From a virus, in IMG/VR virus record IMGVR_UViG_3300009079_000013: a DNA stretch of 64,000 bases. One strand, written 5' to 3'. Every line of letters begins with the position of its first letter. Position 1 is the first letter of the stretch. The position numbers were made by a program, and so were the translations under genes. Below, piece by piece: positions 25,580-63,999 of the stretch. Below the pieces are notes generated by a model that was given only the letters and a program-made list of their open reading frames with translations, was not told the DNA's origin and did not search any database.

Positions 25580-25588
25580 CATAAACGC

Positions 25589-26440: not shown

Positions 26441-26495
26441 TAAAAGCATTTATTAAGTCAGGTAAAGTGAATGCTTGCGGAAAACTTATAATTTC

Positions 26496-28442: not shown

Positions 28443-28533
28443 ATTATTATTTATTCCTTCTTATTTTTTACATAATCAGCGTGTGCACAAAACCTATTGA
28501 ATATACATCAGTACTATATAAAAAATATAATTT

Positions 28534-29238: not shown

Positions 29239-29271
29239 TGACAAATAATAATTATAAAAAATCCTAAACCT

Positions 29272-30172: not shown

Positions 30173-30939
30173 GGAGTTATCTTAGTAGATTTAGATAAAA
30201 AAGTTTGTTGCAGCTGTGTTATTGAAGCAACTGTTGCTCCAGGAGTTGGAGGCCATTTTGAATCTATTACGCCGGCTAAAGTAGTTAATGCAGTAGATAG
30301 GGAAGTTCCTAAAACAGCAGGTTGAGCTAGCGGTTTATTTGGACCAACAACCACGTTATTTCCATTTACATGTATGTCGTTAGAGTTAAGTTCTATTTTA
30401 CTAGTAGATGTAGCTATTATCTTACTATCAGCTGTTATGTTTATTTCAGTTCCTTTTAGTTCTATCACTGACTGTGTTTCAGCGTGTTCTATGGTAATTG
30501 TTTTATCTTGGCCAATATTTAACCTAGAACCCTTTAGTTGCATGGTTATACCTTTCTCTTTAGTAAACCAAAATTTCAATTCTTCATCTCCATCAAAAAG
30601 TAAAAAGTGAGAACCGTGATATTCTCCTTCTTTTTGAAGCTCTTCCTTAATATCATCTGCGAGCTCCTGTATTGCATAATATTCAGGTGAATATATATTT
30701 CCATTATCGAACCTAATCGCTACAACAGAGCCGTCCTTAGGTATAGATACCGATCCTGCTTTTCCATCTTTTCCAAAATACAGTGGTTTTTGTTTTGGAT
30801 ATGACCATGGTAAATCTTCTATAGGTATTGCTTCTCCATGTATTCCAAATACTCTAACTTTACATCTACCTTCAAAATTAGGGTCTCTTGAATCTTCAAC
30901 CGTTCCTAGAAATTGTTTATCTATTAAGTTACTTTCCAT
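30169..30939 (-). CDS. gp5: Baseplate hub/spike protein (gp5 N-terminal OB fold + beta-helix, no lysozyme domain)
   Basis: GTVEDSRDPNFEGRCKVRVFGIH, EDLPW, PKDGSVV. Confidence 0.8.
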   Translation of the reverse strand: MESNLIDKQFLGTVEDSRDPNFEGRCKVRVFGIHGEAIPIEDLPWSYPKQKPLYFGKDGKAGSVSIPKDGSVVAIRFDNGNIYSPEYYAIQELADDIKEELQKEGEYHGSHFLLFDGDEELKFWFTKEKGITMQLKGSRLNIGQDKTITIEHAETQSVIELKGTEINITADSKIIATSTSKIELNSNDIHVNGNNVVVGPNKPLAQPAVLGTSLSTALTTLAGVIDSKWPPTPGATVASITQLQQTFLSKSTKITP

Positions 30940-49441: not shown

Positions 49442-49444
49442 AAC

Positions 49445-50587
49445 ATGAATATAGATTTAGATACTAATACTACTCTTCCGGAGTTCTTAAAAGAAGTTAT
49501 GCTAAATAGATTTCCTGATGATCCCATTAAGCATAAAATAGACGAAGCTAATCCTAAAAAAATAAACTTAGCATGTCCAGTATGTGGAGATTCTGAAAAA
49601 AAGAAATCTAAACGTAGAGGTAATATCTATTTGGAAAGCAATACTTATAAATGTTATAACGATGGATGCATGATATTTATGGATCTCGATAAATTTATAT
49701 CTAGATATTGTCATGAATATAGTTTAATGCCACCTGACCTCTTTATTAAAGGCGGTCTTAAAACAAATGTTAAATCAAGGAAAAAATTATCTCTTCTTAC
49801 TTTCTTAATAAATCAAGATTTAAAACATAAGTTGGTTGATTTAGAATACTTTGCAGATAGGTTTTCATTAAATAAAATAGATACTAACTCAGCTAATTCA
49901 AAATGTTCAAAATACATAATAAGCAGAGAATTAGATAAGTGCGATTCCTTTTCAGAATGTTGCTATGAAGATTCTAAATCTGAAAAGATATTTATTTTTA
50001 ATAAAGATAATGTTTCAAACAAAATATTAGGATATTCCGTCAGGTCCATAGACGATAATTATTGGGGCCCTAAATATAAAATGATGAACTATTCAGAAAT
50101 AAATAGAGAAGTTTCTAAATTAGGAATGACCGAAGAAGAGCTAAATGAAATAGATTCTCTCAATAACATATTTAATATATTGAATATAGATTTTAAGAAA
50201 AAAATAACAATATGCGAAGGTCAATTTGATTCAATGTTTTTACATAATGGTATAGCATCAACCGGTGTAGGTAAAATAAAGGAGACTATAGCAATGCTCT
50301 CAGAGGACGCTAAAGTTAGGATATTATTCGACAATGACAAAGCTGGAAAAACACAATCTATTAAACTTTTACAAGAAGGATATGAAGTCTTCATGTGGTC
50401 TAAGTTGATAAAAGATTTAAAGAATGACTTCCCAAAACATTTAATAGATATTAAAAAAATAACTGATGTGAATATGCTTTACATGTTTTTAATTAAATTA
50501 AACTCTTCATTTTTTAGTATAAAAGAGTTTAATAAAACACTAGACTCATATTTTACAAATTCACTGTTTGACATACTATATTTGTAA
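49445..50587 (+). CDS. gp61: DNA primase (T4 gp61-like)
   Basis: CPVCGDS..KRRG..YKCYNDGC Zn ribbon; CEGQFD; FDNDKAG TOPRIM. Confidence 0.88.
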   Translation: MNIDLDTNTTLPEFLKEVMLNRFPDDPIKHKIDEANPKKINLACPVCGDSEKKKSKRRGNIYLESNTYKCYNDGCMIFMDLDKFISRYCHEYSLMPPDLFIKGGLKTNVKSRKKLSLLTFLINQDLKHKLVDLEYFADRFSLNKIDTNSANSKCSKYIISRELDKCDSFSECCYEDSKSEKIFIFNKDNVSNKILGYSVRSIDDNYWGPKYKMMNYSEINREVSKLGMTEEELNEIDSLNNIFNILNIDFKKKITICEGQFDSMFLHNGIASTGVGKIKETIAMLSEDAKVRILFDNDKAGKTQSIKLLQEGYEVFMWSKLIKDLKNDFPKHLIDIKKITDVNMLYMFLIKLNSSFFSIKEFNKTLDSYFTNSLFDILYL

Positions 50588-50613
50588 ATAAATAAATAAA
50601 AATAACTTTTTAA

Positions 50614-51045
50614 ATGAAAAAATTAGTAAAAACTTTAACAGAATTCAAAAATCACGGATTAAAAAATCCTAAAAAAGCTGATTTAAATGATGATAATAAA
50701 CTATCTAGCTATGAAGTAACGAGAGGAAAAGCAATAGAGAACAATATGGGAGAAGGTCCAGATTCAAACAATATGGACGATATAGCATCCGAATTAAATC
50801 TAGCTGAAGAAATCTTAGACGAGTTGATAGAAGCAGTAGGTTCAGAAGAAGATGTTGAAAAAGCTGCAGAAGAAGCGTATAACGACTTAAAGGATGCATA
50901 TGAGTCTGATGAAATAGAAATGATGGAAAAAGAGGGAGTTCCTGAAAATTTAGCAATGTCTGCACTTATTGTAAAATTAGTAGAACAAGGAAAATTAGAT
51001 CCTAAGAAAGCCGATAAATTCATAGGCGATAGCGTAGATGACTAA
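50614..51045 (+). CDS. Acidic hypothetical protein (EF-hand-like KADLNDDNKLSSYE segment)
   Basis: ORF with late-promoter-like motif upstream. Confidence 0.55.
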   Translation: MKKLVKTLTEFKNHGLKNPKKADLNDDNKLSSYEVTRGKAIENNMGEGPDSNNMDDIASELNLAEEILDELIEAVGSEEDVEKAAEEAYNDLKDAYESDEIEMMEKEGVPENLAMSALIVKLVEQGKLDPKKADKFIGDSVDD

Positions 51046-51550
51046 TAAAAACAATAAACCTAAAAGTATAAAAGATACTTTAAAACCTAGAAGGGGGAAG
51101 ATAAGACAGGGTTATTTTATTCCTAAGAATCCTGACAAATACGATGGAGATCTTTCTCAGATAATATACAGATCTAGTTGGGAATATAAATTTTTGAAGT
51201 TCTGCGACGACAATGAAAAAATATTAAAATATTCATCGGAGCCTGTTGGTATTGCTTATTGGAATCCTGTTACTAAAAAAACATGTAAGTATTGGGTTGA
51301 CGCCTATATAGTAACAAGAGACCCTAATGGAAATATAAAAAAGTGGATACTTGAAATAAAACCTCTCAAATACACTCAACCTCCTAAGCCTATAAAAAAA
51401 ATGACTGAAAAACAAATGAAACATTATCTTAGTCATACAAAGGCGTATTTAATAAATAGAGCTAAATTTGAAGCAGCTAAAGATTATGCAGATTCAAAAG
51501 GTATAAAATTTGGAATAATAACTGAAAACTTTTTGTTTAAGAATTTGTAA
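51038..51550 (+). CDS. gp4: Head completion nuclease (T4 gp4-like)
   Basis: PKNPDKY, YRSSWE, YSSE, YWVD, EIKP, AKFEAA, IITE. Confidence 0.88.
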   Translation: MTNKNNKPKSIKDTLKPRRGKIRQGYFIPKNPDKYDGDLSQIIYRSSWEYKFLKFCDDNEKILKYSSEPVGIAYWNPVTKKTCKYWVDAYIVTRDPNGNIKKWILEIKPLKYTQPPKPIKKMTEKQMKHYLSHTKAYLINRAKFEAAKDYADSKGIKFGIITENFLFKNL

Positions 51551-51559
51551 GATATTACT

Positions 51560-52237
51560 ATGAAGAAATTACTTAGAGATATTAGTATTAAAGCACCTGT
51601 AAATAATCCATTTAAAATAATAGAGGAGTATGGAAAACCCATGCCTCCTAGTTTAATACCAGGTCATTTATACGCGCTCGGTATAGACACAGGTTCCCAA
51701 GTATCTCCCGATACTATTCCATACGATAAGCAGGATTATGTAGACAATAAAGACGATAAGTTCTTTGTTACGAAAAAACCATATTATGATTCAATGCCAT
51801 TTGGAATAGCATTAAATATAAACAATGAAAACTATCAATCTATTTTAAATTTAAAATTAATGTCACCTGTTTACCGAAGACTTATACTAGATTCATATTA
51901 TGCTATTATGAACGTTAAAAATAATTTCATAAGTCCATATGTAAGTGAAGATTTAAAAACCATAGATACTCCTATTGGTAAAAGAATAAGAGATCAATCT
52001 TATATGCAACCCTTTTTTGCTGTAAACGAATCGTTTATATCTAAGATTGTTAATGCAAATGTTAATTTTGCAATAAAAAACTATGAGATAAATAGTATAA
52101 AGAAGGTTAGATTACTTGACTGGAATGCTTTACCCGATATATACAACATGGGAGTAGCCTCAGATGGAATAATATTTAACCAGAGAATAGGTGGAATAGA
52201 AGGAATATTCGAAAGATTCGAATCTAAGTTCTTTTAA
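51560..52237 (+). CDS. Possible DNA end protector (gp2-like)
   Basis: PGHLY, PYYDSMP, LNLKLM; adjacent to gp4 as in T4-like phages. Confidence 0.45.
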   Translation: MKKLLRDISIKAPVNNPFKIIEEYGKPMPPSLIPGHLYALGIDTGSQVSPDTIPYDKQDYVDNKDDKFFVTKKPYYDSMPFGIALNINNENYQSILNLKLMSPVYRRLILDSYYAIMNVKNNFISPYVSEDLKTIDTPIGKRIRDQSYMQPFFAVNESFISKIVNANVNFAIKNYEINSIKKVRLLDWNALPDIYNMGVASDGIIFNQRIGGIEGIFERFESKFF

Positions 52238-52263
52238 ATCGTAAATAAAAACTATAATAAGCA

Positions 52264-53994
52264 ATGGCAGGATTTTTAGAAAATACAGTAAATAGATTAA
52301 GCAGCAGACTATCTGCATTAAGCAGATTCAATGTTAGGCATGAAGATCTTTTACTAAAGAATTCACAGGCAATTGGATTCATAGAAAGTCAACTAATGGC
52401 TAGAAGTAATGAACAATATGGCCAGAACGAGATGATGAGAATGTCGATGGCTATATCTGACACTACTTCTCAATTAAGAACAAAAGCAGTTGCCTTTTTT
52501 CAATTAGACTATGCTATAAAAAGAGAAAGACTTAGAGATATTGCATCCAATGGGGAAATAGAATTTGTATTAGAAACTATAACCGATGATGTTATAGTAT
52601 ATGATGATGAAAATATGTTTTGCCAACCGTCTGATCCTATTGGTAAAATGATGTACAAAGGAAACTCAAAGGAACAGCGATTAAAGTATCAAGATAATGT
52701 CATACGAAAATACAATGAAAACTTTCATAAAATATATAATTCATGGGGGTTTGGTGAAGGTATATCTGCCTGGCAATATGTATATCAATATTTAGTAGAA
52801 GGTCATTTAGCGTTTGAAATAATATATGACAATCCTCAAAACCCTAGGGAAATAATAGGCTATAAAGAACTTGATCCTACTAGTATAGTTCCCCAGTTAT
52901 CGAAAGATAACGCAGGTAAATTATTTTTACAGTGGACCCAATATACTCCAAATAGTACTCATACTAGAACGCTTACAGATTCTCAAATAATATACTTGTC
53001 TTATTCGAATCATTTTAGAACAAAAAGAGTTAGCTTTGTAGAAAGACTAATACGTTCGTTTAATCTACTAAGAATTATTGAACAAAGCAAGGTTATATGG
53101 CACGTTATGAATGCTCCAATAAGACTAACCACTACTGTTCCCGTTGGTTCTAAATCTATTCAAAAAGCACAAGAAGACGTAAGAGAGTTTTTAAATATTC
53201 TTAAGGAAGATATTAACTTTGACAATGATTCAGGTGAAATAAAAGTAAACGGACAACCTAATATCTTATTTTATAAAAATTATGTTTTACCAGTAAATGA
53301 TAGAAACGAACAAGTAAAGATTGAGCCATTACAGTATCCGGGACCTAATCTATCTGGATCTGAATTATTAAATCACTTCTTAAAGAAATTAAAGATGGAT
53401 TCTAAAATTCCATATTCTCGTTGGGAAGGTCAATCTGGAATGGGAGCATTTACTCTCAATGCCGAAGGTATTACTAGAGAAGAAATAAGATATAACAAAT
53501 TCGTAAATAGAATTAGAACAACTATACAGGAACTTATAACTAAACCTCTTTGGTTACAAATGGAATTAGATATACCTCAGATAAAAGGAGATCATAAATT
53601 TAAAAACGCAATAGGCGTTAAATTTAATAATGATAATTTGTTTGAAGAAATGAAAGAACGAGAAGTTGCTAATAAGAGATTAGCTAGTTTCACTGCCATG
53701 AAAGGTGTAATGAACGATGATGGTACTCCATATTTCTCTACTGAATATTTAATAAGAAAGGAACTTAAAATGTCAGATGATGAAATTTCAACAAACCAAA
53801 ATTACATCATACAAGAGCAAGAAGCTCAGGAAGAAGCTAATTCCAAACCCCCTAAGCCTGATGGAAGTGCAGGAGGTGCTATGCCAGATGTAGGTGGTGG
53901 TGGAGCTGCGGCCGCTGGTAGCGGAGCTGCGGCTCCTGAAGGAGGAAGTGAAGTAGTGGATGGTGGAGAAACCAAAGGCGAAGGCCAATTATAA
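52264..53994 (+). CDS. gp20: Portal protein (T4 gp20-like)
   Basis: EIEFVLETITDD, YLVEGHL, ELDP, LRIIEQS, L-PG, KIPYSR, ITREEIRYNKFVNR. Confidence 0.88.
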   Translation: MAGFLENTVNRLSSRLSALSRFNVRHEDLLLKNSQAIGFIESQLMARSNEQYGQNEMMRMSMAISDTTSQLRTKAVAFFQLDYAIKRERLRDIASNGEIEFVLETITDDVIVYDDENMFCQPSDPIGKMMYKGNSKEQRLKYQDNVIRKYNENFHKIYNSWGFGEGISAWQYVYQYLVEGHLAFEIIYDNPQNPREIIGYKELDPTSIVPQLSKDNAGKLFLQWTQYTPNSTHTRTLTDSQIIYLSYSNHFRTKRVSFVERLIRSFNLLRIIEQSKVIWHVMNAPIRLTTTVPVGSKSIQKAQEDVREFLNILKEDINFDNDSGEIKVNGQPNILFYKNYVLPVNDRNEQVKIEPLQYPGPNLSGSELLNHFLKKLKMDSKIPYSRWEGQSGMGAFTLNAEGITREEIRYNKFVNRIRTTIQELITKPLWLQMELDIPQIKGDHKFKNAIGVKFNNDNLFEEMKEREVANKRLASFTAMKGVMNDDGTPYFSTEYLIRKELKMSDDEISTNQNYIIQEQEAQEEANSKPPKPDGSAGGAMPDVGGGGAAAAGSGAAAPEGGSEVVDGGETKGEGQL

Positions 53995-53996
53995 AT

Positions 53997-54206
53997 ATGA
54001 TAAAGAAAGGGATAATATCAGGCAAAGTTTTAAAAGGAAGTAATCCTGAGCAATTAAATGTTACACATGGACCTAATACTCATAAAGTACATAAGCATCC
54101 AGTAGACGATTTAATTGATAAGTCTATAGGGAAAACTGCTGAGTGGTTTGAACCTAACGGAAGTGTAATTATTCCAACTGAAAAGATAGAATATTTAAAA
54201 TCTTAA
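53997..54206 (+). CDS. Hypothetical protein
   Basis: Follows portal gene. Confidence 0.5.
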   Translation: MIKKGIISGKVLKGSNPEQLNVTHGPNTHKVHKHPVDDLIDKSIGKTAEWFEPNGSVIIPTEKIEYLKS

Positions 54207-54213
54207 TACGTTT

Positions 54214-54588
54214 TTATCCGTAGAATATACCAAATGGATTATCTCCATCGATATTTATTTTTAATACAAATACATCCCTGTCTTTTTCGTCTGTATATTT
54301 AGAAGGAGCCACGTCTATATTTTTAATTTTAGCAGATGCAACATATCTTTCTATCTGATTATTAGCCTCATTGGATAAATTAAAAGGGTCTGTTTCAAAA
54401 TCAAAAAGATATTTATTTACATCTAACCCAAACTCAGGTTCTCCTAACACGCTTCCTCTTTCAGTTAAAACAGTCATTTTAATTTGAGATATTGCTTCTT
54501 CGGTATCATCCGATATTTGTAAAACTCCCTTTTTATAATTTGGATCAGTTTCAGTTCTCATATAAAAGTCTTTAAGTGTTGATGCCAT
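54214..54588 (-). CDS. gp25: Baseplate wedge protein (gp25-like)
   Basis: LTERGSVLGEPEFG..YLFD. Confidence 0.75.
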   Translation of the reverse strand: MASTLKDFYMRTETDPNYKKGVLQISDDTEEAISQIKMTVLTERGSVLGEPEFGLDVNKYLFDFETDPFNLSNEANNQIERYVASAKIKNIDVAPSKYTDEKDRDVFVLKINIDGDNPFGIFYG

Positions 54589-54602
54589 TTTAATACATTA
54601 TT

Positions 54603-55337
54603 TTATTGTCTATATAGATAAATCCAATCAGGAGTATTCTCCTTACTCATCATGTCTTCCACTGCCTTTATCTCAGCTTCAGCCGTAGATGTTATAGATT
54701 CATAACTAATAGCTACATTACCAGGTAGAGTATATTTAAAAGTCTGTAACATATGTGCTAGTCTAACTTTACATTTAGCTCTTACCCATCTTTGAAAGAT
54801 TTCATCTTCATATAACTTATCTACTTCTAGTTTTTTATAAAACTGAACAATTGCATCTACCTTAGGAGTTCTTCCCACTATTGTAAGTAATTTAGTATTT
54901 TTGTTATAATCATACGCTAATGTGTCTAATACAAGTCCTCTGGTTAAATCTAAGAAGCTAAAGATTACTGTTCTATACATTATACTCTCTCCAATAAAAG
55001 GTGTTAGAAACACTTCTGAACCTATAAATTTTGACTCTGAAAAGTCTCTATCCATTGTTCCGAAAATAGAACCTCCAGTAGGTTCTTTACATTGTGTAAC
55101 AAATTGTACACAATCTGGTAATTGTATCTGTCGTATTTTCTTAAATTGTTTAGAATCAAATAATTCTTTAGGAAGACTTAAATATCTGGGCTCAACGGCA
55201 TGTCTCCAGTTATCCCAAAAATACCTTGCACCTATGTCAAGTTGCCTCTTAATCTCTTTCTCGGGTAAAGAATATGGTAACATTCCTGAAAATGTTATTT
55301 CTTCATTAATGTCTTTTATTAAATCTTCTTCAGTCAT
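54603..55337 (-). CDS. Neck protein (gp13-like)
   Basis: YDYNKNTKLL, LYEDE..W..AKCK, LPGNVAI. Confidence 0.6.
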   Translation of the reverse strand: MTEEDLIKDINEEITFSGMLPYSLPEKEIKRQLDIGARYFWDNWRHAVEPRYLSLPKELFDSKQFKKIRQIQLPDCVQFVTQCKEPTGGSIFGTMDRDFSESKFIGSEVFLTPFIGESIMYRTVIFSFLDLTRGLVLDTLAYDYNKNTKLLTIVGRTPKVDAIVQFYKKLEVDKLYEDEIFQRWVRAKCKVRLAHMLQTFKYTLPGNVAISYESITSTAEAEIKAVEDMMSKENTPDWIYLYRQ

Positions 55338-55361
55338 CTGGTATTATTTATTTTAAAAAAT

Positions 55362-55814
55362 CTATTGGTTAGAACCGGGTCCGTTTCCTGAGGTTTTATC
55401 GCTAAATCTTATGTCTGAGGTATCTATCTCAACAGTACCGTCTTCTTTTTTAAGCTTAGCCAAAGCTCTATGATTTTTCTTATTAGACAACTCGTCCCTT
55501 TTTGATGCTCTGCTAGCCGCGTTAGATTGAACCCCCTGTAAACATCTGTCCTTTATATTTCTTTTCCAATCGCTATGAAATATTAAATTAAGAGCTCTTG
55601 ATATATCAACTTCTTCAATATCTCCTATGTTGTTATAAGGATCTCTTGCTAACTTTTCATTAGCTAATTCTTGAGCAATTGCCATTATACTAGTGTACAT
55701 ATTAGCTACTGCGCTGTTTACCATTCCAGTATAGTTAGTATTATACACTACATTATCTTTTTCTTCATTTAGAAAAGATTCTATGTCGCTTATATGTTTG
55801 CTTTTATGCTTCAT
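55362..55814 (-). CDS. Hypothetical protein
   Basis: IESFLNEE motif near N-terminus. Confidence 0.55.
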   Translation of the reverse strand: MKHKSKHISDIESFLNEEKDNVVYNTNYTGMVNSAVANMYTSIMAIAQELANEKLARDPYNNIGDIEEVDISRALNLIFHSDWKRNIKDRCLQGVQSNAASRASKRDELSNKKNHRALAKLKKEDGTVEIDTSDIRFSDKTSGNGPGSNQ

Positions 55815-56028
55815 TGGCTTCTTCCTGATCTTCTATTTGTCTAAGTTGCTCTATTTCTATGTCTAATTTAGAAATGTCTGACTCAATTTGAGTTTTTTGA
55901 ATGTCATCTGTAGTTTGCTTTAGTTTTTCTTGCAAAGCTTTTTTCTGATCTAATAACTGAATTTCTTTAGTATTAGTTTCAATAGATTCTGATACAAATC
56001 CTTTAAAATTTTTAATATAATTTTTCAT
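55804..56028 (-). CDS. Small coiled-coil protein with CTS-like N-terminus
   Basis: MKNYIKNFKGFVSE. Confidence 0.55.
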   Translation of the reverse strand: MKNYIKNFKGFVSESIETNTKEIQLLDQKKALQEKLKQTTDDIQKTQIESDISKLDIEIEQLRQIEDQEEANEA

Positions 56029-56033
56029 GTTCT

Positions 56034-57089
56034 CTATTTTAATTTTTCTGGAATATTTATCACCATTGATAATATCCTATTTACGTCTTCTATTTTATCT
56101 TTTCTTTTAAAATATGAAACGTCTTTATATTTATTATTTATCTCACGAATTTTCTTAGATGTATCAGCTGTGTTGTTGTTTAATGAGTTTTTACAAAGCA
56201 TAGTTAAATATAGCAAAATACCTAAATTTAATTCATCGAATTGTTCATATATGTCTTCATGATCTTCATAATATCCATTTCCTTCAAAATAACCTTCATC
56301 TAAATTTTCATATTTTGATTCCAGTCTTCTTCCAATATAATTAACTTGTGCATCTAAAATGTCTAATATTCCATGTTTAGATAATCCAGTTTTTAGGATA
56401 GCTGCTGATATTGAAATTTTATTTTTAGTATAGTTAACTACAATTTCATCTAAAGAAGGAAGATCGTTAGTAGAATTTATTCTAAAAATAGTATTAAATG
56501 TTTTAGAGTTTTCACTGTTTATAGGACCTACTATTTCTGATGTATATTCACCGCTATCTCCTCCATCTGGAGGATTATAATAATCTCCGGGGTCTCCTTC
56601 AGTTGGAGTGTTTATCGTATCGTAAAAAATCTCTACTCCTATTTCTAATATTTTATCATTTATAGTTCCATCTATATCGTCTTCTTCTAGATTAAGGTTA
56701 CCTGAATCTATGTCGTTTAACATTGACATGCATATATTTTCATATTCAGTTTCACCTAAGCTTTTTTCTATTGATGTAAATTTCTCTACCATATAGTCTA
56801 AAGCTCTATCTGACTGAAGGTCTGATATTTCATTACGTTTATCATTATTGATATCTTCTTCACCAGTTGGGTCTTGTCCAAACCTTCCACCTCCTGCACC
56901 TCCAAAACCGCCTGATAAATAAGGAGAATTATTCCAATGCATAGGCATTCTTCCTATTCCTCCTACATGAGTGTTTATAGATAGCGGAGTCGGTACACTA
57001 GGGTTTCTAACAAACATATGCTCAGGAGGATATTCTATTGTGATAGCCCCAAAATGCTCTTTGATATATTCTTTGTAACTTTTTACCAT
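56034..57089 (-). CDS. Hypothetical protein with CTS-like N-terminus
   Basis: MVKSYKEYIKE. Confidence 0.6.
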   Translation of the reverse strand: MVKSYKEYIKEHFGAITIEYPPEHMFVRNPSVPTPLSINTHVGGIGRMPMHWNNSPYLSGGFGGAGGGRFGQDPTGEEDINNDKRNEISDLQSDRALDYMVEKFTSIEKSLGETEYENICMSMLNDIDSGNLNLEEDDIDGTINDKILEIGVEIFYDTINTPTEGDPGDYYNPPDGGDSGEYTSEIVGPINSENSKTFNTIFRINSTNDLPSLDEIVVNYTKNKISISAAILKTGLSKHGILDILDAQVNYIGRRLESKYENLDEGYFEGNGYYEDHEDIYEQFDELNLGILLYLTMLCKNSLNNNTADTSKKIREINNKYKDVSYFKRKDKIEDVNRILSMVINIPEKLK

Positions 57090-57099
57090 ATTAAATGAT

Positions 57100-57375
57100 T
57101 TATAAATCCATCCAGGAATCTTTGTCCATCATTGAATCAAACGCAGTAGGTTCTCTATCTGCTATTTCATCCCATGTCGGTATTTTATTCGATATTTCAA
57201 CATCTACCGTTGGATTTTCCATAAGATGCATCTTTAGAATGTTTTCAATTGTACTGTATTCTGCATCTAGTTGCATTTCCTCTAGTTTATCTAATAACTG
57301 ATCTACGGTCATTGATAGTATTTCTTGTGGCCATTCTTCGTCGTGATGTTCAAATATTTTATTCCAACTTTTCAT
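57100..57375 (-). CDS. Acidic hypothetical protein
   Basis: MKSWNKIFE N-terminus. Confidence 0.5.
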   Translation of the reverse strand: MKSWNKIFEHHDEEWPQEILSMTVDQLLDKLEEMQLDAEYSTIENILKMHLMENPTVDVEISNKIPTWDEIADREPTAFDSMMDKDSWMDL

Positions 57376-57410
57376 ATCAATAGGAGTTTATTTTATATAT
57401 TTAGAATTAT

Positions 57411-57420
57411 TTAGTATAAT
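57411..57420 (+). promoter_or_regulatory. TTAGTATAAT promoter-like motif
   Basis: In divergent intergenic region, heads + strand repair operon. Confidence 0.5.
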
Positions 57421-57439
57421 ATTATAAAATAAATCAAAT

Positions 57440-57655
57440 ATGTTCTTTAAAAAACGTAAAACAATTACTGAAACAGATGGATATAGAAGCGAAATACTTA
57501 AAGCTAAACTTAAGACTGATGTAATCAATAAACTTAATCAGATAAGAATGCACATAGATAAAGAAGATAATTGCTCATATGGAGCTTCTTACGAGCAAAA
57601 CCTTAGAATAATACTAGAAGACCTAGATGATATTTTATTAAATTGGAAAGATTAG
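57440..57655 (+). CDS. Hypothetical protein
   Basis: ORF track. Confidence 0.5.
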   Translation: MFFKKRKTITETDGYRSEILKAKLKTDVINKLNQIRMHIDKEDNCSYGASYEQNLRIILEDLDDILLNWKD

Positions 57656-57659
57656 AATT

Positions 57660-58481
57660 ATGCCTGAATTAGCAGAACTTAGATTAACAGCGGATTATAT
57701 AAATCAAACAGTTAAAGGAAAAACCTTTAATAAAGTTAAGAATAATCCAGAACATAAATGGAAACCCTTATTTCAAAAACATCCATCATTTACTATTAAA
57801 GCCAAAAGTAGAGGTAAGGAGTTAATAGTATATATGAACAATTATCCTATAAGAATGACAATGGGTATGTCAGGTTATTTTAGAATAACTAAGACAGGTG
57901 AAGAGCATAAACATTCGCATATTATTTTTGAATCAACTTGTGGAATGTCATTATCATTTATTGACATGAGAAGATTTGGTAAATGGTGGCCAGGACAGGA
58001 GTGGTCAAATGACAGAGGCCCTGACCCAACTCTTGATTTTGAGGAATTTGTTAGTAATGTTAAATCTAATTTACATAAGAAAATATTTAATAAACCTATA
58101 TGTGAAATACTTTTGAATCAAAAGTATTTTAATGGTATAGGTAACTATTTAAGAGCTGAAATAATTTATAGAATCGAGGAACTAAGTCCTTTTATGAAAG
58201 CAAGTGAAGCAATAGAAAAATATCCAGACATATTAAAACTTTGTAAATATATGCCAGAATTAGCTTATATCATGGGCGGAGGAAGCATTAAAGATTGGAA
58301 AAATCCATTTTTAAAAGAGTCAGGTAATTTTATGAAATGCTATGGTAATAGTGACATGATTAGAGAAAAAGATGGAACCGGAAGAACGATATGGTATAGA
58401 CCTGAACACCAATGGAAAAAAATAGATGAAGATCAGTGGGACCATTATTCAGGTTTACCTAATCCTAAATACTATAGTTAA
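57660..58481 (+). CDS. Fpg/Nei-family DNA glycosylase (zincless-finger type)
   Basis: N-terminal MPELAE, RGKEL, MGMSG, DMRRFG, H2TH LLNQKYFNGIGNYLRAE, GRTIWY; no 4-Cys finger. Confidence 0.88.
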   Translation: MPELAELRLTADYINQTVKGKTFNKVKNNPEHKWKPLFQKHPSFTIKAKSRGKELIVYMNNYPIRMTMGMSGYFRITKTGEEHKHSHIIFESTCGMSLSFIDMRRFGKWWPGQEWSNDRGPDPTLDFEEFVSNVKSNLHKKIFNKPICEILLNQKYFNGIGNYLRAEIIYRIEELSPFMKASEAIEKYPDILKLCKYMPELAYIMGGGSIKDWKNPFLKESGNFMKCYGNSDMIREKDGTGRTIWYRPEHQWKKIDEDQWDHYSGLPNPKYYS

Positions 58482-58487
58482 TATTAT

Positions 58488-58497
58488 TTAGTATAAT
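58488..58497 (+). promoter_or_regulatory. TTAGTATAAT promoter-like motif heading ligase + cassette array
   Basis: 15 nt upstream of ligase ATG. Confidence 0.5.
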
Positions 58498-58512
58498 ATA
58501 AAAAAATAAAAA

Positions 58513-59832
58513 ATGTTTAATAGATTACAGCAATTCGTAGAGAGAAGTAACTCAACAAACTCAAACACTGATAAATTAAATGTCTTAAGAGACTATATAT
58601 CAGACCAGGAGGTCCTTCAAGCCCTTAGGTATGTATATTCCCCCTTTAAACAGTATTATGTTACTTCAAAAAATCTTAAAAAGAGAAGTGACCTGGTTAG
58701 TCCAGTCGGAAACCAATACGGTAGCATCTTTACCCTATTAGATACGTTAAATGATAGAATAATCACAGGACATGATGCCATTGCAGCCGTAAACAGATTT
58801 ATTCTCGAAAACAGACAATACGAAGACCTTATTTATAACATCTTCGACCGGAATCTTAAGACCCGTTCTACAACTTCAATGATTAACAAAGTTGTACCAG
58901 GTTTGGTTCCAACATTCGATGTAGCATTAGCCGCAACTTATGATGAGAAAACCAAAAAGAAAGTCAATCTTGATTCTGATGAATGGTACCTTTCTAGAAA
59001 ATTGGACGGAGTCAGATGTTTAGCATTCTTCGACAATTTTGGAACTGTTACTTTCAAAAGTAGAAGTGGCAAACCATTTGATACACTTGGAAACGTGGCC
59101 AAAGAACTTGAAGGTCTTAAACTCTATAACATTGTAATGGATGGAGAGATTTGCATTGTTGATGAAAATGGCGATGAAGATTTTCAATCAATCATCAAAG
59201 AAATTAAAAGAAAAGACCACACCATCGAAAACCCATTATTTCAAATTTTCGATATGATATCGTTAGAAGACTTTGAGAATAAGGCATCTAGGGAAAAATT
59301 AAGTGAGAGGCTTGATAACCTTCAAATGTCAATCGACCATGTTTATACCCCAATGGTCCCACCAACATACTTCAGAGTACTTGAACAGGACCTCTTAACC
59401 AGTTGGGATATGTTTGAGTCTAAGATGGACCATGCAGTTCAAAGCGGTTGGGAAGGTCTAATGCTAAGAAAAGACGATAAGTACCAGGGAAAACGCAGTA
59501 CTGATATCTTAAAAGTAAAGAAATTCTATGATGAAGAGTATATTGTCGTAGACTTAGAGAACTCCCCAAACCGTGTAATTGTCAATGGGCTTGAAGTAGA
59601 AGAAATGATGCTAAAGAATGTTATCATAGAACACAAAGGAAACAGAGTACAGGTTGGAAGTGGTTTTACAATTGATGAAAGAAGAAGTTATTTTAAAAAT
59701 CCTAATAAAATATTAGGTAAGACCATAACCGTACAGTACTTTGAAACTACAAAAAATAATCAAGGTACAGAATCACTTAGGTTCCCAGTGATTAAAGCAG
59801 TTTATGAAAACGGAAGAGTTGATTATGTATAA
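58513..59832 (+). CDS. ATP-dependent DNA ligase
   Basis: KLDGVR, SRSGK, MDGEI, FD, EGLMLR, KVK, VGSGF, SLRFP. Confidence 0.93.
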   Translation: MFNRLQQFVERSNSTNSNTDKLNVLRDYISDQEVLQALRYVYSPFKQYYVTSKNLKKRSDLVSPVGNQYGSIFTLLDTLNDRIITGHDAIAAVNRFILENRQYEDLIYNIFDRNLKTRSTTSMINKVVPGLVPTFDVALAATYDEKTKKKVNLDSDEWYLSRKLDGVRCLAFFDNFGTVTFKSRSGKPFDTLGNVAKELEGLKLYNIVMDGEICIVDENGDEDFQSIIKEIKRKDHTIENPLFQIFDMISLEDFENKASREKLSERLDNLQMSIDHVYTPMVPPTYFRVLEQDLLTSWDMFESKMDHAVQSGWEGLMLRKDDKYQGKRSTDILKVKKFYDEEYIVVDLENSPNRVIVNGLEVEEMMLKNVIIEHKGNRVQVGSGFTIDERRSYFKNPNKILGKTITVQYFETTKNNQGTESLRFPVIKAVYENGRVDYV

Positions 59833-59844
59833 ACCAAAACAACG

Positions 59845-59973
59845 ATGAGTAATATAGATATTGTAATTATATACCTATTTGTGCCATTTTTAATGGGTGT
59901 AACAGCTGTTTTGGGTGGGGATGTCTTTAAAGATTGGATAAAACATAAAATTAAACAAAAAGATGATGAATAA
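59845..59973 (+). CDS. Cassette 1: 42-aa single-TM peptide (not in ORF track)
   Basis: MSNIDIVIIYLFVPFLMGVTAVLGGDVFKDWIKHKIKQKDDE*. Confidence 0.65.
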   Translation: MSNIDIVIIYLFVPFLMGVTAVLGGDVFKDWIKHKIKQKDDE

Positions 59974-60283
59974 AAAAGAATTTAAACCCCTAAAATGTTT
60001 TTTAAAATGGTCTTATGGTGAACCAAAACACCCTAAAGAATCTATGACAGAGTTTACCTGGGGTTCAGGTATTAATATGACAATTGCGGGACCAGAATTA
60101 AAGTTTGATGAAAATACAACATTATCCGAATGGAGACAGTCAGAAATAAAAAAGTGGGAGAATCTTATGGAAGATTTTAATAAAGATAAAAGAATACAAC
60201 AGTTAGACTTTAGAATAAACCCAAATAGGAATGATGTCGAAGAAGTTGAATCAGATATTAACTTCATTAAGTGGGTAGATTAA
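59963..60283 (+). CDS. Cassette 2: hypothetical
   Basis: Starts and stops in repeats. Confidence 0.7.
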   Translation: MMNKKEFKPLKCFLKWSYGEPKHPKESMTEFTWGSGINMTIAGPELKFDENTTLSEWRQSEIKKWENLMEDFNKDKRIQQLDFRINPNRNDVEEVESDINFIKWVD

Positions 60284-60295
60284 ACCAAAACAAAG

Positions 60296-60556
60296 ATGAG
60301 TAAAAAAGACAATAATTTAGAAATGTTATTAGTTGGTTTATTCCCACAAAACAAAATTAAAGTTGATACTGAAATCCACAGTAAATTCGGTATGTGTATT
60401 GATGTGAATGTTGATGATAAGAAAATAAAATTCAAAATACCAGAAATAGACCCAATAGAAAGGATGATGTTTTCAGTTGAAGATTGGGCTATGGAATACA
60501 GCCATTTAATCGTGCAGGAAATCAGAAATCAATTAAACCAAAACAAAGATGAGTAA
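60296..60556 (+). CDS. Cassette 3: hypothetical
   Basis: MSK... ends NQNKDE*. Confidence 0.7.
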   Translation: MSKKDNNLEMLLVGLFPQNKIKVDTEIHSKFGMCIDVNVDDKKIKFKIPEIDPIERMMFSVEDWAMEYSHLIVQEIRNQLNQNKDE

Positions 60557-60689
60557 AGAAGAAATTATAGATTCCTTATACGATATATTAGATGAAATAG
60601 ATGAAACACCAAAGGATGAATTTGTTGATATAGTGTATATTAAAGAAACGCTAGAAAATATAATAAAACAAAACAAAGAAGATGAGTAA
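60549..60689 (+). CDS. Cassette 4: 46-aa acidic peptide (not in ORF track)
   Basis: MSKEEIIDSLYDILDEIDETPKDEFVDIVYIKETLENIIKQNKEDE*. Confidence 0.7.
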   Translation: MSKEEIIDSLYDILDEIDETPKDEFVDIVYIKETLENIIKQNKEDE

Positions 60690-60825
60690 AGATTATTTAG
60701 ATAAGTCGGAAGAAAGACAAAAGCAGAACATAGAAAAGATTAAACCAAAACAAATGCCACATCCTATTCCTAAATTGAAATGGTGGCAGATGTTAATAGG
60801 AGGATTCAAAGGTAGAAGATATTAA
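60682..60825 (+). CDS. Cassette 5: 47-aa basic peptide containing an internal repeat copy (not in ORF track)
   Basis: MSKDYLDKSEERQKQNIEKIKPKQMPHPIPKLKWWQMLIGGFKGRRY*. Confidence 0.65.
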   Translation: MSKDYLDKSEERQKQNIEKIKPKQMPHPIPKLKWWQMLIGGFKGRRY

Positions 60826-60840
60826 ACCAAAACAAATAAG

Positions 60841-61056
60841 ATGAGAAATAATATAGAAGACTTATCATTAGAATTAATAAAAGACATTAAAAGTTTAGAG
60901 GGGTTTAAAAGTTCACTCATAGAGGAAGAACTTATACATAACTTATCAGAAAAATTAGACAATTTAACTAGTGAAGACAAAGAGGAAAGAATTAAGGCAT
61001 TACACAATATGTTTGCACTAGGTCAAATATTTACAAACCAAAACAAAGATGAGTAA
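60841..61056 (+). CDS. Cassette 6: hypothetical
   Basis: Ends NQNKDE*. Confidence 0.7.
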   Translation: MRNNIEDLSLELIKDIKSLEGFKSSLIEEELIHNLSEKLDNLTSEDKEERIKALHNMFALGQIFTNQNKDE

Positions 61057-61219
61057 AGAAATTGAAAAAATAAGTAAGCAATTATTTGAACTTAAAGAAT
61101 GGCTATCTGAACAACCAGGACATCCTAGTCATCTTTCTAATTTACCTCAGTGGTTTTGGGAAGGTTGGGGTGAATGTATAGATGATTTAAAACGATTAAG
61201 TAAAACAAAACAAAGATGA
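61049..61219 (+). CDS. Cassette 7: 56-aa peptide (not in ORF track)
   Basis: MSKEIEKISKQLFELKEWLSEQPGHPSHLSNLPQWFWEGWGECIDDLKRLSKTKQR*. Confidence 0.7.
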   Translation: MSKEIEKISKQLFELKEWLSEQPGHPSHLSNLPQWFWEGWGECIDDLKRLSKTKQR

Positions 61220-61644
61220 GTAAAATTAAAGAAGAGTTAAAACCCGTGAGATTAACAAAAACTGAAACCTGTTTAACTTATGTTTTAAGACGAATGGGAT
61301 TAGAGCCTGATTTTTGTACTTATGAAACATTTCATGAACACTTTAATCAATTTACATTTTCTAGGTATCAAAAAAAAATAAAAGTTGGTGATATTCTTCT
61401 ATGGGATAAAACTAGTACATGGGAATGGTTACCTTGGACTATAAATGACAACGGTATTATTGAATGGAAAAATATACCAGTAGGATTTCATTTTGCAATA
61501 TATGAAGGTGATGGTATGTTTAGTGATTGTACAAGACTAGTAACGCCACCACATCCCACACTTAGATTAAGAACAATGACAGACTTGCAAAAGAACCCAG
61601 ATTTTGTATTAAGATTAGAACTAAACCAAAACAAAGATGAGTAA
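61216..61644 (+). CDS. Cassette 8: NlpC/P60-like (Cys-His) protein
   Basis: ETCLTYV, KVGDILLW, HFAIYEGDG; ends NQNKDE*. Confidence 0.6.
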   Translation: MSKIKEELKPVRLTKTETCLTYVLRRMGLEPDFCTYETFHEHFNQFTFSRYQKKIKVGDILLWDKTSTWEWLPWTINDNGIIEWKNIPVGFHFAIYEGDGMFSDCTRLVTPPHPTLRLRTMTDLQKNPDFVLRLELNQNKDE

Positions 61645-61834
61645 AGAAGAAGATAAGGAATTAGTCAGCAGGTTACTAAAAGCAGCTAACGAAATTCATA
61701 AGAAAGGATTAGCTAAAGCAAATTATATACATCTACCAGCAAAATTCATACAACAACGAGCAGACGAAGAAGGAGTTACATTTGATGAAATGGTAAAGAT
61801 AATTGAAGAAGAGATTAAACCAAAACAAAGATGA
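61637..61834 (+). CDS. Cassette 9: hypothetical
   Basis: Ends KPKQR*. Confidence 0.7.
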   Translation: MSKEEDKELVSRLLKAANEIHKKGLAKANYIHLPAKFIQQRADEEGVTFDEMVKIIEEEIKPKQR

Positions 61835-62043
61835 GTAGAGAATATATTAAAGAACAATACCAACATCTACAATTATTAAGTAGCAACATAACACCAACAA
61901 GACCAGGTGTGGGATCCTATGTAACTGTAGATGGATTAGAAATATCTGAAGACTATTTTCCAGAAGAATTTGAACAAATAGAAAATGCCTGGGATAGTGT
62001 TGCTAAAAAAATAAAAGAACTAAACCAAAACAAAGATGAGTAG
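61831..62043 (+). CDS. Cassette 10: hypothetical
   Basis: Ends NQNKDE*. Confidence 0.7.
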   Translation: MSREYIKEQYQHLQLLSSNITPTRPGVGSYVTVDGLEISEDYFPEEFEQIENAWDSVAKKIKELNQNKDE

Positions 62044-62263
62044 AGGAGAATTTGCAGTATCACCCCAAGTTGCTAAAGTACTTAGTGATATACAACAAAG
62101 AGAAGAAGATTTTATTAAAGGTAAATCTATAAAAGTAGAAGAATGGGACCTCGAAGACATTCAAAAAGAATATGAACTTATTCTTAAAAAAGAGAGTAAA
62201 CTCTCGTCTAACAATAGAAAAAAGATTTTAGAAATATTAAACCAAAACAAAGAAGATGAGTGA
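62036..62263 (+). CDS. Cassette 11: hypothetical
   Basis: Ends NQNKEDE*. Confidence 0.7.
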   Translation: MSRGEFAVSPQVAKVLSDIQQREEDFIKGKSIKVEEWDLEDIQKEYELILKKESKLSSNNRKKILEILNQNKEDE

Positions 62264-62522
62264 AGAAGAAATAAAAACACTTAGACCATCATTCAAATTT
62301 GGAGGAATGATTATGACTGATTGGTTTGAAGTTTCAGAAGGTAAAGGATATTGTATAATAAGAAGTGGATTAAAACACGCTGATGGTATTACAAAATCAC
62401 CTTATCATTATGAATATTTCAAAGGTGGTAACAATGCAACAAATGAAGTTTTAAACCATTTTAATAATTGGTGGAAACTATTAAACCAAAACAAAGATGA
62501 GCAAAGGAGAATGGATATTTGA
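62256..62522 (+). CDS. Cassette 12: hypothetical
   Basis: Reads through a mutated repeat: NQNKDEQRRMDI*. Confidence 0.7.
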   Translation: MSEEEIKTLRPSFKFGGMIMTDWFEVSEGKGYCIIRSGLKHADGITKSPYHYEYFKGGNNATNEVLNHFNNWWKLLNQNKDEQRRMDI

Positions 62523-62691
62523 ATACAAAAATCATACCTATCATCTACAAGACAGAGATGATAGTTTTAAGAAAGGAGATTTGTTTTTTGAAAGATCAGG
62601 TAGATTAGGTCCTATTGAATGGGACGGTAAGGGACAACTTAACTATCATTGTAAAAAAATAGTAAGTATTAAACCAAAACAAAGAAGATGA
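62497..62691 (+). CDS. Cassette 13: hypothetical
   Basis: Ends KPKQRR*. Confidence 0.7.
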   Translation: MSKGEWIFEYKNHTYHLQDRDDSFKKGDLFFERSGRLGPIEWDGKGQLNYHCKKIVSIKPKQRR

Positions 62692-62912
62692 GTAAAGATG
62701 AAATAATAGATGGATATACCTTTAAGTATAATTCAGAAAATAAATTCTACGAATGTAGAGGAGATGTTTGTTATGATGATGAACATGATGAAGTACCTGA
62801 AAAGGGACTTTGGGATGCAGCACATAAGCTTGAACATAAATTAAAGAATCAAGGTATTGATTGTGATGTAGAGCATTCTGAAAAAGGTTGGGTAGAAGTA
62901 TGTATAAACTAA
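62688..62912 (+). CDS. Cassette 14: acidic hypothetical
   Basis: Stop is the repeat's TAA. Confidence 0.7.
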   Translation: MSKDEIIDGYTFKYNSENKFYECRGDVCYDDEHDEVPEKGLWDAAHKLEHKLKNQGIDCDVEHSEKGWVEVCIN

Positions 62913-62927
62913 ACCAAAACAAAAAAG

Positions 62928-63140
62928 ATGAGTAAAACTAATTACCAACCCTTAATATGTTCAGATAAAGAACTAAAGGAGATAGCAGAACATTGGTGTG
63001 TTTTAGTTGGTGAAAAACCAACAGCATCAATATTAAATGCGTTTATAATGGGAGCAAAAATAGCCGTATCTAATAACGGATGGATAGTAAATAAAGACAG
63101 TAATGAAGATGATTTTGACTACGAATCGGGGATGTGCTAA
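62928..63140 (+). CDS. Cassette 15: hypothetical (terminal)
   Basis: Starts in last repeat; has its own stop. Confidence 0.7.
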   Translation: MSKTNYQPLICSDKELKEIAEHWCVLVGEKPTASILNAFIMGAKIAVSNNGWIVNKDSNEDDFDYESGMC

Positions 63141-63180
63141 GGCATGTAAACAGTAACAGCTTTAAATGTGAATAAACAAA

Positions 63181-63465
63181 TTATCTTTTAGAATCCATTA
63201 ATCTAAGATAGGCTTCTCTCACTTCTTTCTTTGCATGAATTAATCTTCTTTTGATATATACATTTTCAAAATTATCGTCTTCTGATATTGCATTTAAGGC
63301 TGCTCCTGAAAGAGCGTTTATATGTTCAAGTAATTCTTTTATAGTTTGCATTTCTTCCATAGGAATTGGGTCTTTTCCAAATTCATAACGGTTTCCGTTA
63401 CCACCAAGTTCAGAAGATCTGATGAATTCAATGTACCCCATTCCTTCTTTTACTTGCTTTTTCAT
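63181..63465 (-). CDS. Hypothetical protein
   Basis: Start MKKQVKEG at 63465 avoids overlap with upstream gene. Confidence 0.55.
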   Translation of the reverse strand: MKKQVKEGMGYIEFIRSSELGGNGNRYEFGKDPIPMEEMQTIKELLEHINALSGAALNAISEDDNFENVYIKRRLIHAKKEVREAYLRLMDSKR

Positions 63466-63466
63466 A

Positions 63467-63850
63467 TTAATATTCTCCAGATTCTTCTCTTTCTTCCTCT
63501 TTAGATTTTTTAGAATCACTTTTAGTTTTCTTTAAAGGCTTAACCTTTTTATCTGACTTAACTTTCTTATCTGATGATTTTTCATCATCTATATCGTCTA
63601 ACTTAACAGGTCCATTTGGTATAGTAGGGCTATTTTCATAATCTGTTTTTATAAACTTAGTAGCCGGTTTACTAGAAATAGAATCCATATCTCCTTTACT
63701 ATCTGGTATGCTAGGGGAATCTGTCAATTCATTAGATGCGTTTTGCATCTTTTCAACACTCTGTTCATCATTACCTGGAGCAGAGAAATGATCTCCTTTA
63801 GAATAGGCTTTTGTAAATTCTGAAAAATTTAGTATTCTTTTGTTATCCAT
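63467..63850 (-). CDS. Hypothetical protein with CTS-like N-terminus
   Basis: RILNFSEF; low-complexity C-terminus. Confidence 0.55.
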   Translation of the reverse strand: MDNKRILNFSEFTKAYSKGDHFSAPGNDEQSVEKMQNASNELTDSPSIPDSKGDMDSISSKPATKFIKTDYENSPTIPNGPVKLDDIDDEKSSDKKVKSDKKVKPLKKTKSDSKKSKEEEREESGEY

Positions 63851-63852
63851 TG

Positions 63853-63999
63853 TTACTTAGATTTTTTAATATGATAACTTACCGAACTAGCGGCAACGTT
63901 ATATTTTTTACCTATTGCTTTATAAGTCATTCCATTCTTTCTATCTTTAATAAACTGCTTTTTCATGTCAGATGTTATTAAAGTCTTCTTTGATTTTGA
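63853..63999 (-). CDS. C-terminal end of a helix-turn-helix protein (truncated by window edge)
   Basis: ...KNGMTYKAIGKKYNVAASSVSYHIKKSK*. Confidence 0.55.
   Translation of the reverse strand, partial: SKSKKTLITSDMKKQFIKDRKNGMTYKAIGKKYNVAASSVSYHIKKSK

Follow-up and report, generated by a model that had tools for sequence, protein, structure and literature searches.

What is the role of a short sequence that recurs at every boundary in a run of tiny, unrelated phage genes? The question is raised by a 64,000-nt stretch of viral DNA, IMG/VR virus record IMGVR_UViG_3300009079_000013, referred to here as the window. Between positions 59830 and 63140, directly after a gene for DNA ligase, 15 open reading frames (ORFs) lie head-to-tail on the + strand, and every junction is a copy of one repeat of about 24 nt. 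The locus is probably a polycistronic array of accessory genes, in which the junction would act both as a translational restart and as a short homology handle for cassette exchange. A reading made from the letters of the window alone (the sequence-only reading) had described 16 repeat copies and 15 ORFs of 42-142 aa, 13 of which start with Met-Ser, in units of 77-421 nt. All of this is confirmed, the unit length being the start-to-start spacing. The ORFs had also been called mutually unrelated, and this holds in an all-versus-all blastp of the 15, where similarity is confined to the ends encoded by the repeat.

The junction consensus is TAAACCAAAACAAAG followed by ATGA(GTAAA), i.e., one stop codon per frame and then the next start codon. 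All 16 copies are found at the positions first reported. Nine are ungapped forms of the 24-mer TAAACCAAAACAAAGATGAGTAAA with zero to two mismatches: copy 1 (59830-59853), copy 3 (60281-60304), copy 4 (60534-60557), copy 8 (61034-61057), copy 9 (61201-61224), copy 10 (61622-61645), copy 11 (61816-61839), copy 12 (62021-62044), and copy 14 (62482-62505). Copies 3, 4, and 10 are exact, and copy 1 has two mismatches and supplies the TAA that is the stop codon of the ligase. Five copies carry a 3-nt insertion 5' of the ATG, namely copy 5 (60664-60690), copy 7 (60823-60849), copy 13 (62238-62264), copy 15 (62670-62696), and copy 16 (62910-62936). Copy 2 (59952-59975) is degenerate, and copy 6 (60741-60756) is truncated to AAACAAATG and has no stop. 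All copies are on the + strand. The 13-nt core of the repeat, AAACCAAAACAAA, occurs 15 times with at most one mismatch, always on the + strand and within 59831-62923, and zero times in the rest of the 64-kb window. The chance expectation is 0.56, and none of 100 shuffles reaches 15. The repeat is non-palindromic, as had been noted, and has no dyad symmetry.

The same repeat is present in many other viral contigs. The 19-mer AAACCAAAACAAAGATGAG is found in more than 117 IMG/VR stretches among the matches listed, where about one would be expected by chance on a rough estimate. Many of these stretches carry it in clusters, with up to 28 sites in 6.5 kb. Across 560 sites of repeat plus ATG from 122 IMG/VR loci, conservation starts sharply at the T of TAAACC, includes a G at -1 and the A after the ATG, and fades over GTAAA. 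Upstream ORFs of the window enter the repeat in all three frames, so its conservation lies at the level of DNA or RNA rather than of protein. Such an ORF stops at one of three places: the TAA in ATGAGTAA (ending LNQNKDE), the TGA of ATGA (ending IKPKQR), or the leading TAA. Among 272 adjacent cassette pairs from approximately 120 loci, the upstream stop is at +1 in 62, at +5 in 78, and at -15 or -18 in 46. The stop therefore abuts or overlaps the start in 186 of the 272 pairs (68%), which is the arrangement of translationally coupled genes. Rfam has no match for the array. A literature search, whose coverage left subscription journals aside, found no description of the repeat or of the array design, and literature matches to the 13-mer are limited to unrelated primers and similar sequences.

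The repeat is not a general start signal. The junction precedes none of the 62 other genes of the window, in line with the claim that core genes do not share it. Four repeat-bearing records of 210-380 kb that carry gp23 have the core only in one to three tight clusters each, e.g., at 0.1-5.5 kb in G003, at 90-93 kb and 375-380 kb in G001, and at 53-56 kb in G004. A start consensus used genome-wide, which the sequence-only reading had named as a refuting alternative, is thereby ruled out. An 85-kb record, L155, has no core copies beyond chance. The starts of arrays are marked by no common leader or conserved gene, and arrays grade into other small ORFs whose leaders are of the ordinary kind. 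Genes homologous to those preceded by the repeat were gathered by protein similarity, ignoring the leader. At 65-90% aa identity, approximately 44% of them keep the repeat and approximately 35-42% have an unrelated leader. The exact 24-mer is thus unnecessary for expressing these genes, and something besides expression must keep the repeat uniform inside arrays.

In comparisons between loci, the units behave as exchangeable cassettes, as had been proposed, and the pattern of exchange is evident. Contigs whose ligase is 85-92% identical to that of the window have different and shorter arrays. Single cassettes of the window recur in other loci between unrelated neighbors, with each match spanning repeat to repeat. 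The region of ORF 8 at 61206-61640, for instance, is 97% identical in nucleotides to L020 over that span only, and the flanks are unrelated. The 453 cassettes of all loci represent 338 families, and families that arrays have in common stand in varying order. Cassettes have been gained, lost, or reordered among arrays, and the breakpoints lie within the repeat, a positive outcome of the check that the sequence-only reading had put forward. For the homologous cassette pairs taken from different loci, identity is at background level in both flanks of 90, and 11 share one flank; the 37 pairs that share both flanks come nearly all from the same or near-identical contigs. In pairs that are 95-100% identical, the identical stretch has both its ends within the repeats, with noise setting in exactly at their outer edges. 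One cassette is present, at 97% identity, in two arrays of a single 380-kb genome (L021 and L025). The pooled ratio of nonsynonymous to synonymous polymorphism (pN/pS) is 0.33 over 40 families, which indicates that most cassettes are real genes.

A second junction family, M2, has been found beside the first, M1. In the related contig L163 (5351-9198, + strand), 15 mini-genes are joined by TTAA(A/C)ACCAAAGAGAGATGA, and the family carries TTAAMACCAAAGAGAGATGA. Its anatomy is like that of M1: a TAA at -15, a 12-nt A-rich leader, and then ATGA. The M2 motif occurs in more than 120 further IMG/VR stretches among the matches listed; loci that bear it besides L163 are L005, L101, L162, and L199-L318. 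Both junction types stand side by side in L005 and L101. Homologous cassettes are paired largely within one junction type, with 122 M1-M1, 187 M2-M2, and 30 mixed pairs. Among M2 pairs of at least 90% identity, both flanks are unrelated in 28 and shared in 27, and the flank pattern is as in M1.

The junction also has the character of a start site. Its leader is A-rich, lacks a Shine-Dalgarno (SD) sequence, and has A at -3, -6, -12, and -13. In Flavobacterium johnsoniae, A at these positions raises initiation (Baez et al. 2019, PMC6847099). An SD-like tetramer is found in only 3 of the 62 other genes of the window, whose leaders are A/T-rich and varied, and the leaders of the window appear to follow the Bacteroidia style of initiation. 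In predictions of accessibility, the probability that -12 to -3 is wholly unpaired is 0.51 at junctions and 0.12 in the remainder of the array; individual junctions rank between the 82nd and 99th percentiles. The junction sequence thus combines the absence of SD, the A positions, and the low structure of Bacteroidia-type starts, and initiation is predicted there. Promoter-like sites in the array region number 29, against 33.7 expected; the array has no terminator-like site on the + strand, and the 24-mer contains no pair of -35 and -10 hexamers. The array is probably read as one long mRNA, and each junction would then be a translational restart. Co-expression from the motif at 58488, suggested by the sequence-only reading, is plausible. 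Contigs from public RNA libraries cover relatives of the ligase and of one cassette, possibly through DNA carry-over.

These features can be joined in one proposal. The block at 58499-63188 is probably an accessory module of a large marine T4-like phage, in which a promoter-like site and the ligase precede 15 small genes that are unrelated to one another. During translation, the junction would terminate the upstream gene in any frame through TAA, TGA, or TAA, and the open, A-rich, SD-less site would restart each small gene beside the preceding stop. During evolution, the approximately 24 identical nt at every boundary would serve as a short homology tract for exchange. Single genes would be inserted, lost, duplicated, or swapped at this tract, both between co-infecting phages and between arrays of one genome. 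A crossover anywhere inside the junction would rebuild an intact stop-restart signal, so that shuffled products would remain expressed.

General recombination is favored as the means of exchange. Tyrosine recombinases (PF00589) have no match in G001-G004 and G006, and no serine recombinase is found in five related records; one record in each search is rated 100% complete, and positive controls worked in both. An integrase is absent among the 25 of 34 Pfam families listed for ORFs of the window. A RecA/UvsX-like ORF is present in two records. In the most similar cassette pairs, the innermost mismatches are scattered over -15 to +8 with no single position, although the numbers are small (21 and 18 comparisons). 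With no recombinase found, no dyad, scattered crossover limits, and no conserved adjacent gene, general homologous recombination or replication template-switching is the most likely route, ahead of a site-specific enzyme.

Other explanations account for parts of this picture. The repeat could be an expression signal only, i.e., a strong start or coupling site of early genes, with the mosaicism generated by illegitimate recombination and by selection for intact genes. The junction does fit the Bacteroidia start determinants and is predicted to be open, and the mosaic joints of phages generally fall at gene boundaries. Random joints filtered by selection would, however, scatter around those boundaries, whereas dozens of cassettes 95-100% identical are bounded inside the 24 nt on both sides with unrelated DNA immediately beyond. 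Genes of the same genome and homologues of cassettes also use quite different leaders, and expression alone would need no exact 24-mer; this explanation is unlikely. Very little confidence is placed in the view that a trans-acting regulator, such as a RegA-like repressor or a RegB-like endoribonuclease, uses the repeat as its operator on the array mRNA for the joint shut-off of early genes. The RegA and RegB proteins of T4 target the initiation regions of numerous early mRNAs, and conservation of the junction continues past the ATG into codons 2-3, but the conserved GTAAA is already accounted for by the third-frame stop, which 78 of the 272 upstream genes use. A phage-specific regulator as the only cause of conservation is also hard to reconcile with two junction sequences that coexist in one array, and RegA (PF01818) has no match in five records in a search run without a positive control, so that its absence is not established. 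A regulator alone would leave the breakpoints inside the repeat unexplained, yet it could hold alongside exchange.

A dedicated machine that recognizes the 24-mer and moves cassettes, be it a site-specific recombinase, a homing-type endonuclease, or another enzyme, is very unlikely. It would suit the integron-like alternation of constant repeat and variable, promoterless unit in a single orientation, the near invariance of the repeat across diverged phages, a length of 24 nt that is typical of homing-endonuclease targets, and the one HNH endonuclease in the cassette pool. It is opposed by the missing tyrosine and serine recombinases in the five repeat-bearing or related records, by a repeat that has neither dyad symmetry nor a predicted hairpin, by variable crossover limits, by arrays that share no adjoining gene, and by the two junction types that adjoin in one array. 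It is also quite unlikely that the junction repeats, with M1 and M2 as at least two families, are the recognition sites of a dedicated gene-capture mechanism, a counterpart of the integron without a tyrosine recombinase that would load genes with a frame-independent stop-restart signal into the arrays of marine jumbo phages. Finally, mosaic contigs are unlikely to be assembly chimeras formed at a short repeat in metagenomes, and as an explanation of the mosaic arrays this is extremely improbable. The data are all short-read assemblies, and Logan contigs break at repeats or continue into unlike sequence. In contigs from public runs, many apparent joints have sides of 21-31 nt that are the repeat itself from other phages, and loose ends pile up at repeats. 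Against this, identical arrays occur in independent samples (L031 and L041; L019 and L089; L118, L119, L122, and L070), contigs of other runs bridge the junctions of the window in the same order, and the repeat is shorter than the usual final word sizes of assemblers.

Exchange at a restart junction remains the preferred reading, and several points weigh against it. The evidence is all comparative and comes from short-read metagenome assemblies, cassette pairs are not independent events, and the loci were retrieved by an exact 19-mer, which biases the sample toward intact repeats. The public runs that contain the stretch were examined as assembled contigs, and the host is inferred rather than known. 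For efficient homologous recombination of the T4 type, a tract of 24 nt is short, so that a helper or another route may have to contribute. A factor that binds this particular sequence could likewise explain why the repeat is nearly identical in diverged phages.

The closest precedent is the promoter-early stem-loop (PeSL) elements of T4-type phages, which have the role proposed for the junction and a different anatomy. In the hyperplastic regions of T4-type coliphages and vibriophages, PeSLs occur as recurring regulatory cassettes, and their recombination reorders the ORFans and gives rise to mini-circles (Arbiol et al. 2010, PMC2839356; Comeau et al. 2014, PMC4122927). As in the array, short repeated regulatory sequences stand at the borders of small genes, most of them ORFans, in the variable regions of T4-like myophages, the joints of insertions, deletions, and replacements fall in the repeat, the downstream start codon is included, and sequence variants differ among phage groups. 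The window has this setting, with gp23, gp20, and UvsW present and with the whole block an insertion/deletion difference from a relative, L155. In contrast to the junction, a PeSL is intergenic and combines a stem-loop terminator, a sigma-70-type -35/-10 promoter, and an SD sequence, which makes each gene its own transcription unit. The junction is about 24 nt long, has no hairpin, promoter, or SD, overlaps both coding sequences, and stops all three frames; unlike a PeSL, it would act at translation within one transcript. The mini-circles of PeSLs have been shown by experiment, whereas the evidence on the array is comparative. PeSL-mediated modular shuffling (PMC2839356, PMC4122927) is a closer precedent than the integron or CRISPR array, and the sequence-only reading, which had drawn those two parallels, did not include it.

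The parallel to integrons holds for the architecture and not for the machinery. In both, a constant site alternates with variable cassettes that are mostly single genes, lack promoters of their own, and point the same way, with an upstream promoter that is putative in the array; most members of the large cassette pools have no known function. The cassettes of the window share a single orientation, their promoter-like sites do not exceed chance, and a promoter-like motif stands upstream at 58488. The array differs in having no IntI-type recombinase, no attI, no attC imperfect palindrome that folds as single-stranded DNA, and no fixed crossover point. Its repeat is predicted to be mostly unpaired and belongs to coding and initiation sequence, and its replicon is a lytic-type T4-like phage. 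CRISPR arrays have non-coding repeats, near-uniform spacers of approximately 26-72 nt, and cas genes; by contrast, the units of the array are 77-421 nt, coding, and under purifying selection. In lambdoid phages, conserved boundary sequences have been proposed as recombination points between modules. These are also short, lie at gene boundaries, and are sites of module exchange, but they are sporadic and separate functional modules, whereas the present arrays are regular, run to as many as 28 copies, and have a translational design. Translational coupling at ATGA or TAATG and SD-less initiation in Bacteroidia resemble the junction in that stop and start overlap or abut and the leader is A-rich and unstructured (PMC6847099). 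Ordinary coupled genes, however, have no common fixed 24-nt junction and no stop for every frame.

Small genes without known function make up much of the dark matter of phages, and host-takeover and anti-defense functions are being found there. A fixed 24-nt tag marks the boundaries of such genes in more than 200 uncultured marine phage contigs among the matches listed in two exact-match scans, and it would thus delimit an extensive pool of accessory genes that phages share and actively exchange. The tag is searchable and could be used for harvesting accessory genes from metagenomes. It would extend the PeSL idea from the transcription signals of enterobacterial and vibrio phages to a translation signal, and to phages whose hosts are probably Bacteroidota, in which SD sites are not used. 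A stop in every frame followed by a restart site would make any crossover product expressible, a concrete answer to how tiny genes can be shuffled unharmed. The junction design may also serve as a synthetic-biology part for Bacteroidota.

The individual cassettes of the array all lie on the + strand. ORF 1 (59845-59973) encodes 42 hydrophobic aa, and ORF 2 (59963-60283, 106 aa) has a homologue in L029 with 50% aa identity. ORF 3 (60296-60556) encodes 86 aa. ORF 4 (60549-60689, 46 aa) has homologues in L031, L041, and L064, with a nucleotide match from repeat to repeat at 60532-60692. ORF 5 (60682-60825, 47 aa) is composed of two units joined in frame, the result of the truncated copy 6 that lacks a stop; L030 matches aa 1-24 only, and in nucleotides the match stops at 60753. 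Codons 1-24 of ORF 5 (60682-60753) form a separate unit that recurs in L030, L021, and L024 with 78-88% nucleotide identity, and may be either a micro-protein or the remnant of a cassette. ORF 6 (60841-61056) encodes 71 aa, ORF 7 (61049-61219) 56 aa, and ORF 8 (61216-61644) 142 aa. ORF 9 (61637-61834, 65 aa) is 93% identical in nucleotides to L029, limited to 61614-61837.

In the remainder of the array, ORF 10 (61831-62043) encodes 70 aa and ORF 11 (62036-62263) 75 aa. ORF 12 (62256-62522, 88 aa) reads through copy 14 because AGT is replaced by AGC there. ORF 13 (62497-62691, 64 aa) is 93% identical in nucleotides to L051, limited to 62481-62706. ORF 14 (62688-62912, 74 aa) has homologues in L045, L096, and L100 across 62663-62935, and the final member, ORF 15 (62928-63140, 70 aa), has homologues in L008 and L059.

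The functions of the cassettes are mostly obscure, and the host-takeover or anti-defense roles suggested in the sequence-only reading are largely conjectural. A Pfam scan of 10 of the 15 cassettes of the window gave nothing above threshold. Cassette 8 has many metagenomic homologues in which Cys19 and His92 are invariant. Its predicted model has a pLDDT of 81, and the best fold matches are NlpC/P60 peptidases, although these are non-significant and no match reaches E <= 0.001. Cassette 8 is thus a possible NlpC/P60-like Cys-His protein, a weak lead that agrees with one from a language model. In the wider pool, 149 representatives are mostly without a known family. Identified members include thymidylate synthase, UvdE, a spore-photoproduct-lyase-like protein, SPFH proteins, ERF and Sak4 annealing proteins, a DnaB-like helicase, a SET domain protein, and an HNH endonuclease. 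In L107 (8714-9097, - strand), a repeat-preceded gene of 128 aa matches Tad5, a family of Thoeris inhibitors, at E 7e-8, which passes the curated cut-off. A search for Tad5 (PF25190) in five records gave no match; its controls gave no signal, so absence is not established.

The array and the ligase form an accessory block (58499-63188, + strand) that is missing from the closest syntenic relative, L155. This record is collinear with the window over 48230-58497 at 80-90% nucleotide identity. Its Fpg/Nei gene is joined directly to a homologue of window 63189-63991, and the block of approximately 4.7 kb is absent. The direct join indicates that the block, with promoter-like TTAGTATAATA, ligase, and 15 cassettes, is an insertion/deletion difference. 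At its left edge is TTAGTATAATA (58488-58498, + strand), a putative promoter. The motif has four exact copies in the window (8331, 10519, 57411, and 58488), all on the + strand and 16-29 nt before an ATG, and 18 sites when one mismatch is allowed, versus 9.6 expected. It is a candidate for a promoter class, but is not a general feature upstream of arrays in other loci.

The ATP-dependent DNA ligase (58513-59832, + strand) matches phrog_114 with an E value of 1.3e-79. Nucleotide homology to the relatives with an 85-92% identical ligase ends at 59852-59862, inside repeat copy 1. In these relatives, the upstream neighbor of the ligase differs from that of the window, and the ligase itself therefore seems to have been exchanged between contexts. 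The gene before the ligase in the relatives (L118, 9562-9897) is an 82% homologue of window 12225-12566, 46 kb away. Distant relatives of the ligase (approximately 48% identity) have no repeat and no comparable array, and are uninformative.

The window has a G+C content of approximately 30% and the genes of a T4-like myophage, i.e., gp23, a prohead protease, the gp20 portal, and UvsW. It also encodes topoisomerase II subunits, a primase, part of a DNA polymerase, PhoH, the ligase, and NeuB with hexapeptide transferases. No nucleotide match to the region is found among INPHARED phages. The closest portals in isolate collections, at 32-38% identity, are those of Lak phages of Prevotella and of uncultured huge phages. 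Large aquatic moraphages, which are related to Lak phages, carry DnaK/DnaJ and have Flavobacteriia as predicted hosts (2025; PMC12619734). By its features, including DnaJ, the window would fit this description, and the host is probably a member of the Flavobacteriia.

Bacterial genomes (596 Gb) contain 23 single occurrences of the repeat, 8 of them in Bacteroidota; a few resemble phage contigs binned into metagenome-assembled genomes, and these occurrences identify no host. Repeat-bearing, cassette-like stretches are also found in bacterial or archaeal bins, namely L139 (a Prochlorococcus single-cell assembly), L134, L140, L142, L148, and L152. These are probably phage DNA binned with cells, and their labels are uninformative on the host.

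Several further features of the window are of interest. Among ORFs of at least 90 aa that lie outside the array, additional domains are DnaJ, a TnsA-like endonuclease N-terminal domain, SET, GH16, and dCMP deaminase. A 189-aa ORF at 150-716 (+ strand) matches only positions 114-225 of thymidylate synthase and is a fragment or a divergent form. A 483-aa ORF at 47990-49441 (+ strand) matches only the C-terminal part of phage DNA polymerase families (503-839 of 856), and the polymerase may be split, as in some T4-like phages. The region at 18000-30200 holds a cluster of NeuB, hexapeptide transferases, glycosyltransferases, a GFO/IDH/MocA oxidoreductase, a cytidylyltransferase, and an FkbM methyltransferase, and looks like a phage-borne block for the synthesis of a sugar, possibly a nonulosonic acid.

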